This document shows positions 1,862-61,762 of a stretch of 64,000 nt of DNA, in pieces. Origin of the DNA: Bispira polyomma (Eukaryota); the NCBI GenBank assembly GCA_965649765.1, contig OZ287755.1, positions 19,964,001 to 20,028,000 of the forward strand, written 5' to 3'. Both the position numbers and the translations under genes were made by a program. Positions within the stretch are counted from its first letter, which is position 1, and each line of letters opens with the position of its first letter. The notes beneath the pieces are model-generated. The model did no database searches, was not told the origin of the DNA, and was given only the letters and a program-made list of their open reading frames with translations.

Positions 1862-4497
1862 GATTATATACACCGATCCAGTGGATACTTTATTTTAGCG
1901 TTCGCTATGCCGCCACAGAGAGATTTTCTCCGTTAACACTCTCTGCAGAAAACTAGACCAGCTAGCTTTACCAAGTTTGCAGGGTATCTTTTTTGGGAGG
2001 TAAGCTTCTTTGCGACTGAAATTAGCCTCATTCTGAAAAAAAAGATGGTCGCCATCAGCATTTCTTTGAAAATTATCTACCTTTTTCAACTGACTGGTTT
2101 TTGTAACTAGAAGGTTGAATCTCTTCATAGGTGAAATGTATAACAGATATATATGTCCTCTACAAGCATACAGACATTTGACCTTGAAGCTCTTCATTCA
2201 AGGTCATTTACAAAGTGCCAAAGTACACAAAGTAACAGACTTTAAAAGTGCCTATATCTCCCTTATTATTGGTCCTAGAGGTTTGGCATGTGAAGCCTAC
2301 CTATAGGAAATCATGGGCTGGGAATCTTCCAGAGGTGCATTATGTCAATATCTTGGTTAGGATTGTATTTGGGCCCATTCAAAAAAACAACTTGAAATTT
2401 GTTGCTGGACCCTATCCCTGATAATAATTGCGCAACCCACCTTTTTGGGGTCTATAACCCCACTAGTTTAAATTCATCTATTTATTATATTAAAATGTTT
2501 ACAACAGAGATATAACATATAGCTATTCTCAGCCAAGGAGGGCGCTTATAAATCACTCAAATTTTAAGTTTTGTAAAAACATGACAACAGGTGTAACAAG
2601 CAAAGAATATTAACTGATATTAAGTGTTTTTTGTTGCAACATTTAAGTAATAAACAATGGATTCTCAAAAGGATATATTTGAATATTTATTGTGTTTGGA
2701 AGAGCCCATGACAAATACCTATCAATTCCTGATAACAAAATGTGGACATTATTTTTGTTCATGCTGTTTATCCAGTATCTTCAAACATGCAATGAGCAAC
2801 ATAATACAATGCACACTGTGTGAATGTGCAGTGCAAGTCTATGAAGTTGAATCAGTTAACCATAAGTTTAAAGAGCAACTGCTGGATCTGAATGTTATTT
2901 GTAGTGTATGTGGATTTAATGGCCATTACACAAGGACATTTTTTTGTAAAATAGACACAGATCACTCAATACAGGTGAATAAAGATGTTACATTCACCGA
3001 TGGTTCCATAGAGTCACCATTACAGAGTACACCAATAGGAGACAAGAATGTTCCTTTGACATCCAAGGACATGGAACTTCAAACATCACCAATTCTCATT
3101 TGTTTACCTGACATCCAAGGACATGGAACTTCAAACCTCACCAATTCTCATTTGTTTACCTATTCCACCAAAACAATCAGTGCAAAATAACTCACTTAAA
3201 CCGTCTTTACAGCGCCACTTAACATCTCTAACATCTCCACTGACGCTGACATCATTACCATATGTGAATCCAGACTTCAACCTACCGACCAACAATCACA
3301 CCACATTGACCACTTTACATGCATCAGAAACAACCAAACCCATCATCGCCACACAACTAGACCTCCACATGGATTAATCATTTATATACTAAATTCATGC
3401 ATAGCGTTGTCCCATCATCATTTCAACACCCCCACATTTTAATACAGGATTGTACAATTACAACAACTACCTTCTACTGCAATTGTCATTGTTCTCATAT
3501 AAATTTACACAACAAATACAACCCTCCTTCGGTCTTACAATACTAACAGGTACATTGTCCTTGGCGATTTCAACATCAATATACAATCATCACAAAATAA
3601 AACATTGCTTCAACCTATGAATGTCACCTTCCAAGCACAACAGCAATCTACCACAACATCTTGCTACGGCACCCTCATCAACTTATGCTTCTCACCCCTC
3701 CCACTACACCCTTCAACCATTTCTTGCAACTTCTCTGACCATAACATGTTAACCTTATCTTTAGACAAACAATAAACACTCCCCACATATTCCACTAACA
3801 TCATTCACATCTCCATCTAGAACATCACTTTATATCCCACTTCACAACATAACTAAAATCTTGCCTTCGCCCTCTTTAACAAAACAAAAGTCCTTTACAC
3901 ACCAACAAACAATTACCTATCCATAATTACAGCCCCTCCCCTTCATGACAGCTGACAATGTGGCCCACAGGGGCCACTCTATTTTTATCTTGTTAAATAT
4001 TATAGATACTCGGTACTAGCATTTCTGGGATGACGTCATCACTTTTCGTATACATCCCACATTTTATTTGACACGAGCGTCTTGCAAATCGCTTATGTTC
4101 TCATCACTTTTGGGGCATTTCGGTTGGGTACTCGACTTTCAAAATTTCCTATCTCGCTAGAATATATTTTGTTAACACACGAGTCGAGGCAAAGTCTGTG
4201 AACTCCTTCTATTTAAGCCTACATTCTCATTATATTTGGGGCGTTTTATGGGGGTACTCGGCTTTCAGAACTTCCTCCTTCACTATAATATCTTTTATTT
4301 AACACACGAGTCGAGGTTTCGTCTAAAACGTGACCCGGAAGTGAGCGACATTAAAGGATTTATAGTGAAAATACTGTATGCATATCGATACGTACTTGCT
4401 TTTAAATTTCATATCGCAATGTATTGCTTTTAGAAACTATATTGGGGTATATGAAGAAGTGTAGTATTCCCCCTCAGGTGTATGAATACATCTATTT
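1862..4497 (+). mobile_element. Putative non-autonomous Helitron/Helentron-like (HINE-type) composite element carrying a RING ORF
   Basis: Starts TTATATACACCG. Has 3'-type hairpins GTGGCCC-acag-GGGCCAC followed by TCTATTTTT (~3960-3986) and AGGTGTA-tgaa-TACATCT followed by ATTT (~4476-4497), and a ttgaccttgaa...ttcaaggtca internal motif. Boundaries are uncertain. Confidence 0.4.
2657..3377 (+). pseudogene. Degenerate C3HC4 RING + zinc-finger ORF resembling the N-terminal region of RAG1/Chapaev-type transposases
   Basis: FEYLLC...ITKCGHYFCSCCL...IIQCTLCE...ESVNHKFKEQLLDLNVICSVC. The first Cys appears mutated (TAT vs TGT). A 52-bp tandem duplication (3057-3108/3109-3160) shifts the frame between ORFs 2657-3190 and 3123-3377. 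Confidence 0.6.
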
Positions 4498-6486: not shown

Positions 6487-6589
6487 GGCAGACAGAAGCT
6501 GGCCAGGTTCAACCCAAGGGAATTTGCCACGTTAATCATAGACATCCTTACAGACGTGAGGCGGAGACAGTGTCCTCACTACTCACTGG
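6487..6589 (+). CDS. GIT: GIT exon (SHD2): GRQKLARFNPREFATLIIDILTDVRRRQCPHYSL
   Basis: Near identical to GIT1 GRQKLARFNAREFATLIIDIL; tttcag acceptor, gtaagt donor. Confidence 0.95.
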
Positions 6590-7042
6590 GTAAGTGGGCA
6601 AAAACATCCTTACCCCAGTTTAGTAAATTAGTGTGTGGTATCCTACGAAGTCCTACCTTTACTGGTAAGGCCATCCTTACAGACGTGAGGTGGAGACAGT
6701 GTCCTCACTACTCACTGGGTAAGTGGGCAAAAACATCCTTACCCCAATTTAGTAAATTAGTGTGTGTTATTCTATGAAGTCCTACCTTTACTGGTGGGGC
6801 CATCCTTACAGGCATGAGGCGAAGGTAGTGTCCTCACTATTCACTGGGTAAGTGGGAAAAAACATCCTCACCCCAGTTTTGTTAATTAATGTGTGTTATC
6901 CTACAAAGTCCTACTTTTACTGGTAAGGCCATCCTTACAGACATGACGCGAAGGCAGTGTCCTCACTATTCACTGGGTAAGTGGGCTAAAACATCACTGG
7001 CCCCAGTTTAGTAAATTAGTGTGTGTTATCCTATGAAGTCCT
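6543..7042 (+). repeat. 129-bp tandem repeat (~4 copies) spanning the exon 3' end and 5' splice site
   Basis: CACTGG|GTAAGT donors at 6590, 6719, 6848 and 6977 (exact 129-bp period). Confidence 0.95.
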
Positions 7043-7043
7043 A

Positions 7044-15225: not shown

Positions 15226-15320
15226 CTGTGTATACACCGAGTATTTGGTCACTGCAGTCAGATGGTCCGATATAGTAGATTATAGCGTGTATTGAGTTAG
15301 TGTGTCCTATCTCCACACAG

Positions 15321-15470
15321 AGTATCTCGTCACTACAGTCAGATGGTCCGATGACCATAGACGACTACCTGGACGTCAAGCGGCTGCTGGCCGACTCTCA
15401 GGTCAGGAACCAGAAACTAGTGCAGAGCAACCAGGACCTCAAGCTGGAAATAGTGCAACTAAAGAATATG
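15321..15470 (+). CDS. GIT: GIT exon (coiled coil): SISSLQSDGPMTIDDYLDVKRLLADSQVRNQKLVQSNQDLKLEIVQLKNM
   Basis: Aligns with the GIT1 coiled coil SDGAVTLQEYLELKKALATSEAKVQQL; cacag/gtaggt; 150 nt, phase 0-0. Confidence 0.92.
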
Positions 15471-17250
15471 GTAGGTTAATACTAAAGCTAGATTATCACT
15501 TAGTGCTGCTTAAGAATGTGGTAGGTTAATACTAAAGCTAGGTTATCACATAAAGCTGCTAAAGAATGTAGTAGGTTAATACTTAAGCTAGGTTATCACA
15601 TAGTGCTGCTAAAGAATGTGGTAGGTTTGTACTAAAGCTAGGTTATCACATAGTGCTGCTAAAGAATGTGGTAGGTTTGTACTAAAGCTAGGTTATCACA
15701 CAGTGCTGCTAAAGAATGTGGTAGGTTAATACTAAAGCTAGGTTATCACATAGTGCTGCTAAAGAATGTGGTAGGTTCATACTAAAGCTAGGTAATCACA
15801 TGGTGCTGCTAAAGAATGTGGTAGGTTAATACTAAAGCTAGGTTATCACACAGTGCTGCTAAAGAATGTGGTAGGTAATACTAAAGCTAGGTTATCACAT
15901 AGTGCTGCTAAAGAATGTGGTAGGTTAATACTAAAGCTAGGTTATCACATAGTGCTGCCAAAGAATGTGGTAGGTTCATACTAAAGCTAGGTAATCACAT
16001 GGTACTGCTAAAGAATATAGTAGGTTCATACTAAAGCTAGGTTATCACATAGTGCAGCTAAAGAATGTGGTAGGTTAATACTAAAGCTAGGTTATCACAT
16101 AGTGCTGCTAAAGAATGTGGTAGGTTCATACTAAAGCTAGGTGATCACATGGTGCTGCTAAAGAATGTGGTAGGTTAATACTAAAGCTAGGTTATCACAC
16201 AGTGCTGCTAAAGAATGTGGTAGGTAATACTAAAGCTAGGTTATCACATAGTGCTGCTAAAGAATGTGGTAGGTTAATACTAAAGCTAGGTTATCACATA
16301 GTGCTGCCAAAGAATGTGGTAGGTTCATACTAAAGCTAGGTAATCACATGGTACTGCTAAAGAATATAGTAGGTTCATACTAAAGCTAGGTTATCACATA
16401 GTGCAGCTAAAGAATGTGGTAGGTTAATACTAAAGCTAGGTTATCACATAGTGCTGCTAAAGAATGTGGTAGGTTCATACTAAAGCTAGGTAATCACATG
16501 GTGCTGCTAAAGAATGTGGTAGGTTAATACTAAAGCTAGGTTATCACACAGTGCTGCTAAAGAATGTGGTAGGTAATACTAAAGCTAGGTTATCACATAG
16601 TGCTGCTAAAGAATGTGGTAGGTTAATACTAAAGCTAGGTTATCACATAGTGCTGCCAAAGAATGTGGTAGGTTCATACTAAAGCTAGGTAATCACATGG
16701 TACTGCTAAAGAATATAGTAGGTTCATACTAAAGCTAGGTTATCACATAGTGCAGCTAAAGAATGTGGTAGGTTAATACTAAAGCTAGGTTATCACATAG
16801 TGCTGCTAAAGAATGTGGTAGGTTCATACTAAAGCTAGGTAATCACATGGTGCTGCTAAAGAATGTGGTAGGTTAATACTAAAGCTAGGTTATCACACAG
16901 TGCTGCTAAAGAATGTGGTAGGTAATACTAAAGCTAGGTTATCACATAGTGCTGCTAAAGAATGTGGTAGGTTAATACTAAAGCTAGGTTATCACATAGT
17001 GCTGCCAAAGAATGTGGTAGGTTCATACTAAAGCTAGGTAATCACATGGTACTGCTAAAGAATATAGTAGGTTCATACTAAAGCTAGGTTATCACATAGT
17101 GCAGCTAAAGAATGTGGTAGGTTAATACTAAAGCTAGGTTATCACATAGTGCTGCTAAAGAATGCGGTAGGTTTGTACTAAAGCTAGGTTATCACATAGT
17201 GCTGCTTAAGAATATGGTAGGTTAATACTAAAGCTAGGTTATCACTTAGT
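15459..17250 (+). repeat. 50-bp satellite (~36 copies) seeded on the exon donor, with a 349-bp 7-mer higher-order repeat
   Basis: Unit ctaaagaatgtg|GTAGGTtaatactaaagctaggttatcacatagtgctg; a 49-bp variant recurs at 15871, 16220, 16569 and 16918. Confidence 0.97.
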
Positions 17251-18078
17251 AGGGTAATTCTAAAGCTGTGACGATCAGTTGAAAGATCTATGTATCAGTT
17301 GACTGCGACAAATATTGCGATGCATGAAATCCAGGCTTTGCCACTCGATCATGTATATTTTACTCCTGTTGGTTGAATTTTAGTATGCAACCCAAAGCAC
17401 ATTGTTGCCAAGGAAAAATATAAATAATTAGATCGATAAAATTGTACCTTTGTATTCATGTTACACTTAAATTTGTAGTTATATGGTAGAAAAGATAAAA
17501 AAAAATAATTGAGTTTAGGTATATGTATCAGCACTGTATTTAGTTGAAATTGTTTTTTCGATGCATCAGTCAGTCTATTTGGGCAATAATCATTTGCAAA
17601 TAACATATATTCTGACTCTCAGATTTAATTAATACACACAGCTATTAAATATTATTTTGGTTTAACAGCGCTCTTGTTGCGTCAATTGTCATAACACGAA
17701 GTAGGAAATCAATGCCCTCCCCCCCCCCCCCCCCCCCACCTAAATGATATGATAGGTTATCAGCTAGTTCTGCTAAAGAATGTGGTAAGTCATCGAATAC
17801 AATGCTACTAAAGAATATGGTAAACCTTGGTTGTGTAGTGGTAACACACTTACCTTCCACCTTGGCAGCCATCCTGGATTCGAATCTGGGTTCTGAAGCA
17901 TGTATGTGAGAAAGTTGGCAGTGGACTTGAAGTTTGGCCATTTGCACCTTGAAAACCTTCACCAACTACCCTGTTCTTGTGCGACATCTTTAATGCAGTA
18001 AGTGTCGTTGTTTTGATTTTCTGTCGAATAACCTTACAAGAGTGGTGTGTTTTTGTTTTTTTTAAACTTTCACTGCAG

Positions 18079-18267
18079 GTACAACGACTTGTTCAAGAGA
18101 GTCAGTCAGCGAAGCTTGCAAATCCCGAGCCTTCATCTAGTCATTCACACGTTGTCAGTGGCGCCGTCTCTATCCAGGATGTGGCTGTGCGAGGGGCCAC
18201 CTCTTCCACCCGCCCCATGTCCATGTTTGAACCCAGAGAGCAGGCGCGATGTCAACACATGAGCAAA
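18079..18267 (+). CDS. GIT: GIT exon: VQRLVQESQSAKLANPEP...RPMSMFEPREQARCQHMSK
   Basis: Continues the coiled coil; RPxSMxE motif as in GIT proteins; ctgcag/gtaagg; 189 nt. Confidence 0.9.
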
Positions 18268-22626: not shown

Positions 22627-22799
22627 AGTGGCTCCAGTAGTAAAGACAGCTCCCAGACGTCCCTCAAGTCTCAGTCCCGGTTAGAACACCAGACAGACTC
22701 CACAGAGTCGGATTACGACAATGCTAACGCCCCCACTTTGGAGGAGGAGGACCCCTCTAGTGTGGACGCAGAGGCTCAGCTAGAGAACGCCAGGCTCAG
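22627..22799 (+). CDS. GIT: GIT exon: SGSSSKDSSQTSLKSQSRLEHQTDSTESDYDNANAPTLEEEDPSSVDAEAQLENARL
   Basis: Conserved SDYDN/SDYEN motif of GIT; cacag/gtaaga; phase 0 to 2. Confidence 0.92.
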
Positions 22800-23330
22800 G
22801 TAAGACAGAGACAGCTCGAGAACGCCAGGCTCAGGTAAGACAGAGGGACAGTTAGAGAATGCCAGGCTCAGGTAAGACAGAGGGACAGCTAGAGAACGTC
22901 AGGCTCAGGTAAGACTGAGGGACATCTAGAGAATGCCAGGCTCAGGTAAGACAGAGGAACAGCTAGAGAATGCCAGGCTTAGGTATGACAGAGGAACAGT
23001 TAGAGAATGCCTGACTTAGGTAAGACAGAGGGTCAGCTAGAGAATGCCAGGCTCAGGTAAGACAGAGGAACAGTTACAGAATGCCTGACTTAGGTAAGAC
23101 AGAGGGACAGCTAGAGAATGCCAGACTTAGGTAAGACAGAGGGACAGCTAGAGAATGCCAGACTTAGGTAAGACAAAGGAACAGTTAGAGAACGCCAGAC
23201 TTAGGTAAGACAGAGGGACAGCTAGAGAATGCCAGACTTAGGTAAGACAGAGGAACAGTTAGAGAACGCCAGACTTAGGTAAGACAGAGGAACAGTTAGA
23301 GAACGCCAGACTTAGGTAAGACAGAGGACA
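22777..23330 (+). repeat. 37-bp tandem repeat (15 copies) seeded on the exon donor
   Basis: cagctagagaatgccaggctcag|GTAAGAcagaggga; donors at 22800, 22835, then every 37 bp to 23316. Confidence 0.97.
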
Positions 23331-23864
23331 ACCTCTTTTATAGGGATTTGAATGTTACATGAATTCTAATGTTATATGAACAGTAAGTTAACTTGTACAA
23401 GACAGCCTCTTCTATCTAAACTTAAATGTTACATGAATAATGATCAGTGTTAGACTGATAATAATAAGGTAACTAATGTTCTAGTCAGGATAAATCTCTT
23501 TTATCTGAACTCTCCTGTTATCTAAATGCTCCTGTTATCTAAATGCTTCTGCTATCTGAATGCTTCTGCTATCTGAACGTTTCTGTTGTATGAAAAACCT
23601 CAATTATCTGAACTCTTCTGTTAAATGAATAATAGTCAATATTAGAATGCCAGGTTAAGGGAACTTATGCAGGAAAACCTATTATCTGAACTTTGCTGTT
23701 AAATGAATAATCTCTATTATCTGAACTCTTCTGTTAAACAAAGAATTAATTTATTCCAGTGAATTTCCTCAAGAATTGTGTAAATTAGTGAAATTCTCTT
23801 CCGGCTAAGATGTTTTCCACTTCTACACAGTTCTGTTAAAGGAACCATTGTCTCTGTGTTACAG

Positions 23865-51991: not shown

Positions 51992-52161
51992 CGTGGCAGT
52001 GAGGTTGATGCCTCCTTTATCTTTCCTCCTGAAGTAGATGTTAGGTGGAGTTTTGTTTAGCCGTATACCAAACCCTTCCAACTCGTGTTCTATCAGTTTT
52101 TTATGCTGTAAAGGTTTTAACACATCCAGCACCAGGAAGATGATGTTACACGTGCGGGCCA
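51992..52161 (-). CDS. DRG1: DRG1 exon 5: [57 protein letters not shown]
   Basis: Matches DRG1; ttttcag/gtatgt; phase 1 to 0. Confidence 0.97.
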
Positions 52162-52250
52162 CTGAAAAATATATGGGGACACTATATAACATGTGCGGGC
52201 CACTGAAAAAAAAACAGGAAAAAGATGTAACATGTGCAGGCCATTGAAAA
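52148..52250 (-). repeat. 41-bp tandem repeat (3 copies) spanning the DRG1 exon 5 acceptor
   Basis: ttttcag|tggcccgcac at 52161 and 52202; third copy at 52243 has AG changed to AA. Confidence 0.9.
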
Positions 52251-58897: not shown

Positions 58898-60843
58898 CAA
58901 ACTGCCCTCATATTATGCTTGATACAAAATAACTTAAAGAAAGCCTATCTGTTGGCTGGTCAGTCTTTGCATTACATGAGACAATATGATTGTAAAAAAA
59001 ACTTCTAAGAAAATATTCTAAAAATGGTAATTATGAATACTGTCACAGAATTAGAGTTGATACTTGGCAAATTGTCCACAGAATGCTTGGAGTCACTTAT
59101 TTGTTTAATTTTCCATTTTGTTTTTCAACACAAAAAGTATTTATTATTTGCAGTGAAAATGCAGCCAATTTCCTCATTTTAATGGTTATAAAAAACTATA
59201 AATAATCTACGCTGTATAATATGTGATGTTCAAGTTGCGAGGATATTAGACCATTTTGCTGATTTTAGCAAGTCCCCCGTGTATAGGCTTCTTGCTGTTC
59301 CAAATGAGTGCATTTTAAAGCACGTAGCCTGGAAAACATACCCACCCAATGAAAATTATCGTCGATTATTGGTTACCTAAATATAAGATGTCAAAACTAG
59401 CTAGAGCTGGACTGTCCTTGTCCAGAATAAAATGTAGCTACCTAAAATATTTTTCTTTTCTTGTATTTGTTTCTTACAAGCTCCTATCTACTATCTTCAT
59501 TTACAACTGGAGATATATTTATCTCTGACAGGCAAGTAGTTACAAGCACATGTGGACATTATGGAAAAAAGTTCTATGGACGTCTGGGAGCCAGATTTAT
59601 ACTGATCACCCAGTACCTAAATATTCTGGAAGTGTTCAATTGCCAATCACACGAGTCTCTCACAAATATGGGTTAGAATCATTTTGGAAAGTTTGTCAGG
59701 TACTTGCTGTAGGCTGGTGGTTTATTATCAACAGTTTCTTCTAACATTAAATTGAGTCGTTGTAATATGACATGTCCTGTTGAAAGCAACATAAACCCAA
59801 CGAAACTAAAATATTTGGTCACAGCTCGAGTCACAAGAGGAAATCACTAACTGGACATAGCTTTAATTTACTTCTTTAAAAGACACTAGTTAGAGAAAAA
59901 TTTAATCCTGAATGAATTTCTTTAAAAATTGTAAATTAGTGAAATTTTCTTACAGCTCAAATTTTGCACTTAATTCCACTAGCATATCGATAAATGAAAA
60001 AATAATTAAAAAATACTTAATACACACATAGAGACTTGAATTTGCTCTTGAGACTACAGACTAGGTCGGGGTCAATCTAGGTCAATCGTAAGCTGCTAAC
60101 AAATTATCTTAACCTTATAACGACCTATCTTTTCAATCGGCATCAAAATTGGGAGAAAAAAATTAGCCATTTTAATGTGACTGTAAAGATAAGTCATTAC
60201 CAAGTTCCCGATTGTAAAGATAACCCGTGGGAAGCGGCCGATAAGTCGTTAGGAAGCCCCGACTGTAAAGATAGGCGTCAATTGTAAGCTGTTAAAGAGT
60301 TATCTTAACCTTATAACGACCTATCTTTCCGATCGGCATCTAAATCAGGAGTAAAATTTGCCATTTTGAAAAAGATTAATCGCCCAATCCCTCCCGATAG
60401 GTCGGGAGCACCCTCCAGATTGGTCGGGAGCATTACGAGTTATCATCTACTACTCCTGAGTTATCCTGTTAAATTTTAAGGATAGGTCTTTAGAAATGCC
60501 CAGAGAGTAAAGATAACTCGGGAATGTCATAAAAATAAGTCGTTACCAAGTTCCCGATTGTAAAGATAACTCGGGAGAAGCGGCCGATAAGTCGTTAGGA
60601 AGCCCTGACTGTAAAGATAACTTGGGAGGATTAACGATAGGTCGGGTGGGACAAAAGATAACTCAGAAGTGAAAGTGATGACCGAGGAAACATTGGGGGG
60701 GGGGGGGGGGGGGAGCGGACTGTATAAAAGGAACACAGCACACTCGTTCTTTATCAGAATCATCCCAGCTTTCAAAGAGTCAACATCTGCTTGCAATTTT
60801 TATGTTATATGATAACAACAGGCTTTTATTTTTTATTATAAAG

Positions 60844-61035
60844 ATGAGTGAGACTATGCCAGGAAAAAAGAGCGTTACAAAGAAAAGGAAGGTACAGCCA
60901 AGGCAGAAGGAGGAGAGGGAGTTTGAAGGGAGGTATACAGATGATGAGGAGATTATTCCAGATACACAGCAGTAATCTGAGGTCCCACAAAGGGTTTCAT
61001 CATCCAGGTCTTTTAGGCAAATGCGTCGTCTCCGT
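60844..61035 (+). pseudogene. Probable 5' stub of the Harbinger second (DNA-binding) ORF
   Basis: TATAAAA at ~60723; MSETMPGKKSVTKKRKVQPRQKEEREFE... (NLS-like), convergent with the transposase; no Myb/SANT domain visible. Confidence 0.45.
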
Positions 61036-61762
61036 CGGTACTCAGCATCCACCAGGGCCAGCATAACAATGAAGTGGAATCCCTTGTAGTTGTAGAACTC
61101 ACTCCTCCTTTCTTTGACATCTTATTGCTATGTGTTTGCCGTCTATGGCCCCCAGGGCATTGGGGACTTGCCAGTTGTCTCTGTAAACAGCTGCGACCTT
61201 CTTCCAGTCCTTTGGGGTGGTGGGGCAGCAGAGAAATTCCTCATGGAATTCGTCGATGATTTCCTGGCAAACCTCAAGAACAAACATGGCAATGGTTGAC
61301 CTCCCCAAACAGAATGCGTACTAAAGTGAGGTGTACAACTCCCCAATCGCCAAATATCTTAAAGTTATTGCAATCTTCAGTCCAGGTGAGAGTGCCTTGC
61401 GGTACCAGGTCGTGTTTCTTGCAATCCTGTGGGCAACCCTCCTCTCCAGTTCTTGGAAAAATTCTGGGGTCATCCTCAAAAAGTTCCTATACAACCGTGT
61501 GTCTTGTGCCTCCATCCATGGCAGAAGTGCTGAGTAGTGACCGTGCTTCTCCCTATCCCTAAGTAATGGGTTCACCAAGAGCCTCCTTGGTGATCTGGCT
61601 CTCCTGATCCCGATATTATTAGCCTGATTCTGTGAGAGCAAGAGATTTTATCGTCTTCTTCTTCTTTGACCTTGAAAATGTCTAAGTGCAAGTAGTTGTA
61701 TAAATGCTAAGAAAGCTTGTAGAATTTGGACAATATCTATAATCCTTTAGGGTTTTGTACAT
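61035..61762 (-). pseudogene. Harbinger (HARBI1-like DDE) transposase, N-terminal half
   Basis: YRNFLRMTPEFFQEL...RKALSPGLKIAITLRYLAIG...PNALGAIDGKHIAIR...FYNYKGFH..VMLALVDAEYR; internal stop at 61321-61323, frameshift near 61100, truncated. Confidence 0.92.

Follow-up and report, generated by a model that had tools for sequence, protein, structure and literature searches.

A 36-copy minisatellite founded on a splice donor of the GIT gene of Bispira polyomma contains a seven-unit block repeated four times

Minisatellites that span an exon–intron junction form an already known class, to which amphioxus 'mirages' and the human F7 intron 7 VNTR belong. In amphioxus (lancelet), mirages have been reported in Adh3, the globin genes BflGb6 and BflGb9, troponin C, and PGBD5; according to the accessible portions of these reports, boundaries on both the donor and the acceptor side are copied tandemly into the intron as units of 10–160 bp, several per gene, with a homogenized core and diverged edge units, and splicing is reportedly not disturbed (PMC3087553, PMC3902484). 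The mechanism of their origin was called unclear (PMC3087553). The first monomer of the 37-bp VNTR in human F7 likewise spans the donor and reiterates it down the intron, and the same source, in its accessible text, also names IFI6 (6-16), CBS, LMNB2, and PDGF, describes the choice of the most upstream of identical donors in F7 by oriented scanning, and reports normal splicing despite donor repeats in F7, LMNB2, and PDGF (PMC1557585). Human tandem repeats at exon–intron boundaries have been surveyed in segmental duplications (PMC2812944), and repeat length and splicing are treated for a layout other than that described here in the part of PMC10078293 that was available. In the literature searched, which subscription papers mostly lay outside, no genome-wide count of such repeats against background was found. 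Added here is the frequency of junction-spanning repeats in a genome sample, measured against the intronic background.

The array described here lies in a GIT intron of the window analysed (the whole stretch of 64,000 nt) and belongs to this class. Its first unit spans the real junction with 21 exonic and 29 intronic nucleotides at the ancestral donor, the splice signals are reiterated intact (GT in 35 of 35 distal copies, which are not independent of one another, and a score of at least 7 in 30), and a 20-nt monomer pattern has no match with one mismatch or fewer outside the array. Compared with the mirages, it has 36 copies and a clean seven-unit block; the mirages were presented as single-gene cases in the text available, with length polymorphism and normal splicing shown, whereas here a frequency against background was measured. 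The F7 repeat includes 4 exonic nucleotides and 5–9 copies, versus 21 and 36 in GIT, and the human cases comprise a few named genes in that source, whereas about 12% of sampled donors are affected in this genome. The features of the locus are listed in Table 1.

Table 1. Features of the GIT array and related repeats in the 64,000-nt window
Feature	Position	Strand	Basis
Whole array, 50 bp × 36	15450–17250	+	TRF, monomer cutting
Coding exon for the GIT coiled coil (phase 0/0), from which the exonic part of the unit derives	15321–15470	+	Pfam, PDB, homologs, translation
Upstream copy of the exon's acceptor region, period 81, 36/44 identical, CAG to CCG	15229–15272	+	
Founder unit: 21 nt from the end of the exon (I-V-Q-L-K-N-M) and 29 nt from the start of the intron	15450–15499	+	
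Authentic splice donor, ATG/GTAGGT	15471–15476	+	Homologs; frame continues into 18079–18267
TAA in frame, preceding each of the 35 distal donors	15477–15479	+	Translation
Left flank monomers, outside the block repeat	15500–15720	+	
Seven-monomer 349-bp block × 4, one mismatch (16143)	15721–17116	+	
Right flank monomers	17117–17250	+	
Diverged orphan copies of exon end and donor	17753–17822	+	89% over 38 nt, E = 1.4e-9
Next GIT exon	18079–18267	+	
Sister donor-spanning array, GIT, 129 bp × 3.9 (SHD exon, donor 6590)	6543–7043	+	
Sister donor-spanning array, GIT, 37 bp × 15 (donor 22800)	22769–23327	+	
Acceptor-spanning repeat, 41 bp × 2.9, neighbouring gene	52133–52250	−	

The host gene was identified by matches to GIT_CC (Pfam PF16559) at 15339–15470 (E = 4e-11), GIT_SHD (Pfam) at 6487–6570, and GIT1_C (Pfam) at the last exons, and the exon adjoining the array also matches the coiled coil structure of GIT1 (PDB 2w6a, E = 1.5e-4). 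The start of this exon was placed by homologs, 13 of which were obtained from a search of 1.84 billion representatives; an earlier homolog search had returned three short C-terminal fragments only. All 14 aligned sequences share E37 and L41, and at least 90% of them have I38, N43, and M44; 12 of the 13 homologs read N-M-V and diverge beyond, as is expected of open reading frames that run through a shared GT donor. The conserved exon end and the shared N-M-V thus show that the donor at 15471 is ancestral and that the repeat was derived from the exon and not the reverse, and the composition of the unit and the homolog alignment agree with the original prediction that the array was seeded from a coding exon end. 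Read-through of the donor yields V-G-stop, with TAA two codons past the true donor as had been noted, and every product of a distal donor would therefore carry a premature stop, which holds for all 35 distal donors, including the 11 in frame. An exonized coding repeat is ruled out by the stop at the third codon, and so is a role as backup donors, because any distal donor would include the TAA. Inside a GIT intron of the window lies an intronless RING-finger ORF (2654–3775; Pfam zf-C3HC4, E = 3.8e-5) with a 52-bp duplication, likely a decayed mobile element.

In the window, TRF reported a period of 50 bp in 36.1 copies together with a period of 349 bp, and 36 occurrences of GTAGGT, the number of units originally proposed, were found within 15471–17217. 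Cutting at these occurrences gave 16 unit types, with the final unit running into the flank. Units 6–33 follow the order F-G-H-I-J-K-L four times, which bears out the seven-monomer block; the mean distance between monomers is 1.07 at lag 7 versus 3.3–4.0 at lags not divisible by 7. At the best lag, 19 pairs are identical, a number that none of 20,000 random monomer orders matched (maximum 9). The four blocks differ pairwise by 0–1 of 349 nt, the sole change being a private base in one of them, and a near-exact run of 1,108 nt exists at period 349, whereas monomers within a block differ by an average of 3.5 of 50 nt (approximately 93% alike). The predicted diagnostic units with a 1-bp deletion do start at 15871, 16220, 16569, and 16918, the missing T itself being located some 6 nt downstream of each start; the 'gaatatag' variant (monomer type K) also recurs every 349 bp. 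More diverged monomers flank the core on both sides, as had been noted, and the last donor of the array (17217) has the same 9-mer as the authentic donor. The order of the monomers and the near-identity of the blocks support the proposed amplification in two stages.

The predicted orphan units were located at 17753–17790 and 17803–17822, with a poly-C tract and a tRNA-like SINE (the latter read from sequence) as neighbours, and are likely the product of an older duplication round. A similar relic of the 37-bp donor unit is present at 23640–23660, approximately 320 nt past its own array.

The description of the block repeat as 'centromere-style' holds for formal likeness only. As in the higher-order repeats of alpha-satellite DNA, the blocks are more alike than their monomers and the flanking monomers are unordered. 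However, alpha-satellite arrays are described, in the text available, as extending over 250–5000 kb with 171-bp monomers of 70–90% identity (PMC7767330), whereas the block region of GIT occupies 1.4 kb at one intronic locus with monomers 93% alike, and the hundreds of kilobases to megabases typical of centromeric repeats contrast with a 1.8-kb array that has no second copy in the assembly. A centromeric satellite is rejected for this single intronic locus of a conserved gene; the array is a 1.8-kb single-locus minisatellite with late block amplification. Block duplication is a known, although infrequent, minisatellite process, and in MSY1 and INS, as far as the accessible text goes, a block of several variant units is likewise repeated within an allele (PMC2674676). 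In the GIT array, four copies of the block follow one another directly.

The implication of the original prediction that such an array is rare proved wrong. Three of the eight GIT donors in the window carry junction-spanning arrays (129 bp × 3.9, 50 bp × 36, and 37 bp × 15). An acceptor-spanning repeat was also found in the neighbouring minus-strand gene, which presumably encodes a GTPase of the DRG type, judging from its motifs; the one exon of this gene that was scanned gave no Pfam match. The frequency was examined in exons collected by family search (myosin head, Ras, and kinesin), using the flanks of 288 of 297 rows (781 kb), after 53 of 150 Ras rows (full-length or C-terminal) had been dropped; the kinase family (130 rows) was left out, its best hits being nearly all intronless. 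A self-trained matrix called 259 donors and 247 acceptors in the 288 exons, an above-threshold donor being missing in 29 and an acceptor in 41, and a junction was scored when the 20-mer centred on it had a tandem copy on the intron side. The results thus refer to three conserved families and computed splice sites, with small counts for long arrays.

Before removal of paralogs, 33 of 256 donors and 20 of 247 acceptors were positive, versus 2.63 and 2.74% of collapsed intronic points, respectively. After removal, the values were 30 of 247 donors (12.1%, CI 8.3–16.9%, p = 5e-12) and 18 of 237 acceptors (7.6%, CI 4.6–11.7%, p = 1e-4), versus 2.6–2.7% of intronic points; the difference between donors and acceptors for all duplications was not significant (p = 0.097). 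Of 109 gene bins, 26 are affected, bootstrapping over bins gave 8.5–17.3%, TRF alone detected 28 of 259 donors and 15 of 247 acceptors, and a looser junction test gave 14 of 62 in myosin, 14 of 113 in kinesin, and 7 of 84 in Ras. Some real donor arrays (47 bp × 35 and 26 bp × 18) escaped the site caller and the background contains unannotated exons, so the enrichment is likely understated. The 26-bp array lies on C10 near 19421060; its unit is wholly exonic and starts with GTAA, such that each unit recreates a donor from an exonic proto-splice site. A 53-bp donor array was found in 12, 24, and 16.8 copies in three near-identical myosin-head paralogs (C11, C8, and C13), whose sequences suggest a recent segmental duplication to three chromosomes followed by changes in array length; copy number is thus labile.

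Long arrays (at least 10 copies with a period of at least 20) were measured as the chance that a point falls in a founder unit. On the donor side, this chance is 4.45% at donors (11 of 247), 0.64% at +40 to +100 nt, 0.25% at +100 to +200 nt, and 0.1–0.15% beyond, and on the acceptor side it is 1.27% at acceptors (3 of 237), then 0.45, 0.38, and 0.08–0.18%. The rate at donors is thus approximately 30–40 times that of the deep intron and 7 times that of the proximal intron. Starts of duplications peak at 4.4 per kb at 20–40 nt inside the exon versus 1.1–1.2 per kb in the deep intron. Among 45 long arrays of the exon-flank sample, which include paralog copies, 6 have a duplicated multi-unit block, none has a block of diverse monomers in at least three copies, and 3 with long runs at a multiple of the period are near-homogeneous and were not scored as higher-order. 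The GIT block is cleaner than that of any of these 45 arrays, the extreme end of what an ordinary process produces. The GIT array as such is nothing unusual in this genome and falls into a class already described.

We consider it probable that the array is an intronic single-locus minisatellite whose founder spans the GIT donor, which was seeded at a microhomology, grew unit by unit and then by four-fold amplification of a seven-unit block, and is likely harmless; a tolerated by-product is the most likely status. TAGT occurs at both ends of the array (15451–15454 and 17247–17250), and a slip at this 4-nt microhomology, a possible seed, would have duplicated the junction and left the mRNA unchanged, as the first donor would still work. 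Slippage or unequal exchange may then have lengthened the array by single units, before a recent four-fold amplification of the seven-unit block in 349-bp steps. By analogy with human F7, in which first-donor use was shown according to the text cited above, the first GIT donor would be taken by 5′-to-3′ scanning, and any leak to a distal donor would presumably lead to nonsense-mediated decay. More generally, donors likely accumulate arrays because a duplication at this position does not alter the mRNA and a conserved exon holds the seed in place. Deletions are also likely less frequent in DNA close to exons, which would keep arrays visible longer; the raised rate of long arrays in the proximal intron (0.64 versus 0.1–0.15% in the deep intron) fits such a shelter effect and is seen at +40 to +100 nt even for arrays that do not span the junction. 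Upstream copies of an acceptor would be transcribed ahead of the real site and may be removed more often, in line with the lower rate at acceptors.

A quite different origin, in which the donor was brought in by a dispersed satellite or a piece of a transposon that landed at the end of the exon, is very improbable. In the whole assembly, a 20-nt monomer pattern gave 36 hits with one mismatch or fewer, all inside the array, and 7 scattered single hits with two mismatches (1 for a control pattern), and no second array was found in this search. The original prediction had named a dispersed monomer as grounds for rejection, and the monomer proved to be locus-specific. Many copies would be expected elsewhere of a dispersed repeat, but a 200-nt search of the genome returned, besides the array itself, one 43-nt match of 91% identity 1.2 Mb away on the same contig (C8:18759251–18759293). 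This match lies beside a poly-G tract and a SINE-like element, with another repeat on its other side, a setting that could speak for a mobile source. However, it is a single copy shorter than a monomer, and it contains the exon-derived part together with a variant present only in inner monomers, which points to the array as its source; it more likely came from the array, possibly as a templated insertion. The exon end and the position of the donor are also ancestral, which, together with the locus-specific monomer, largely refutes a dispersed element as the origin. That the array is real and its four-fold block partly an artefact of assembly, by expansion or as a haplotype mosaic, is improbable too. 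In favour of an artefact, the blocks are almost identical and none of the 45 other long arrays has a comparable block, but one block carries a private base (16143), and 1.8 kb would be short for the long reads that an assembly of 1.04 Gb in 75 contigs implies. The depth over the first unit was 9–12 times that over the exon (contig depth; three runs of one study, whose contig sets are possibly the source of the assembly itself), which indicates many copies and not their number.

Two further explanations concern the donors themselves. The original prediction described the array as a dense cluster of potential U1 sites, and as sequence this part stood: 30 of the 35 distal donors score 7.7–8.1 versus 8.1 for the real one, so the real site is not marked by its sequence and must be marked by its position. 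A function of these sites did not gain support, and we regard it as unlikely that selection keeps such arrays as landing pads for U1, whether for strengthening of the donor, suppression of premature polyadenylation, or tuning of GIT output via decay. One A(A/T)TAAA hexamer is present downstream in the intron, and GT is weakly under-mutated across 25 donor arrays (11 of 50 GT columns variable versus 168 of 500 other G/T columns; Fisher p = 0.11, paired Wilcoxon p = 0.044). However, the other U1-pairing columns in these arrays are not conserved (54 of 144 variable versus 333 of 1,049 others), and there is no clear selection for U1 sites. Copy number varies between paralogs, 88% of sampled donors have no array, a backup donor used here would meet the TAA, and the pseudo-sites of F7 are described as failing to compete even if strengthened, in the portion of the report available (PMC1557585). 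A donor-linked mutational process, such as slippage or damage connected with transcription, splicing, or the edges of nucleosomes at 5′ splice sites, that makes or amplifies copies and leaves the arrays functionless is a possible though doubtful alternative; it is compatible with the minisatellite origin preferred above and would add to it. The peak of duplication starts inside the exon, the gradient of long arrays from donors (4.45%) through acceptors (1.27%) to the deep intron, and repeated rounds at one donor, as seen in the orphan copies, speak for such a process, whereas the donor–acceptor difference for all duplications is not significant, the proximal intron is raised on both sides, and a standing frequency mixes birth and survival. 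Some observations run counter to a neutral view: the excess of long arrays at donors exceeds rough neutral factors, put at about 2-fold each, GT columns vary somewhat less than others, with GT intact in all 35 non-independent copies of the GIT array, the GIT block is cleaner than in any of the 45 sampled long arrays, and splicing in human IFI6 and CBS leaks to the two pseudo-donors that follow, according to the same partial source (PMC1557585). Neutral effects do not obviously reach 30–40-fold, and a donor-linked mutational bias thus stays a candidate; the enrichment at donors is only partly explained.

If 12% of donors carry ladders of decoys, the choice of splice site in thousands of genes must withstand dozens of identical donors lying downstream. 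RNA-seq of this species could then probe the scanning model on many more genes than the few human examples. The surplus of long arrays at donors is also relevant to the origin of mirages. A more far-reaching and tentative idea is that long minisatellites of this genome arise mainly at 5′ splice sites, via splice-linked mutation or selection for U1 sites; if true, tens of thousands of decoy-donor ladders would provide a natural test of first-donor choice on the scale of a genome. In practice, such arrays can mislead gene prediction and exon-primed markers.

Other elements were noted in the window and beyond. Reading frames at 1–480 resemble the end of a tyrosine-recombinase retrotransposon and are followed by an inverted repeat near 1010–1130, and broken reading frames on the minus strand at 60500–61650 resemble those of a Harbinger-type transposase and its partner. 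Many near-identical intronless kinase ORFs of approximately 411–418 aa are distributed over at least 10 contigs, with a tandem cluster on C4 at 97.6–99.1 Mb, and are possibly carried by a mobile element.
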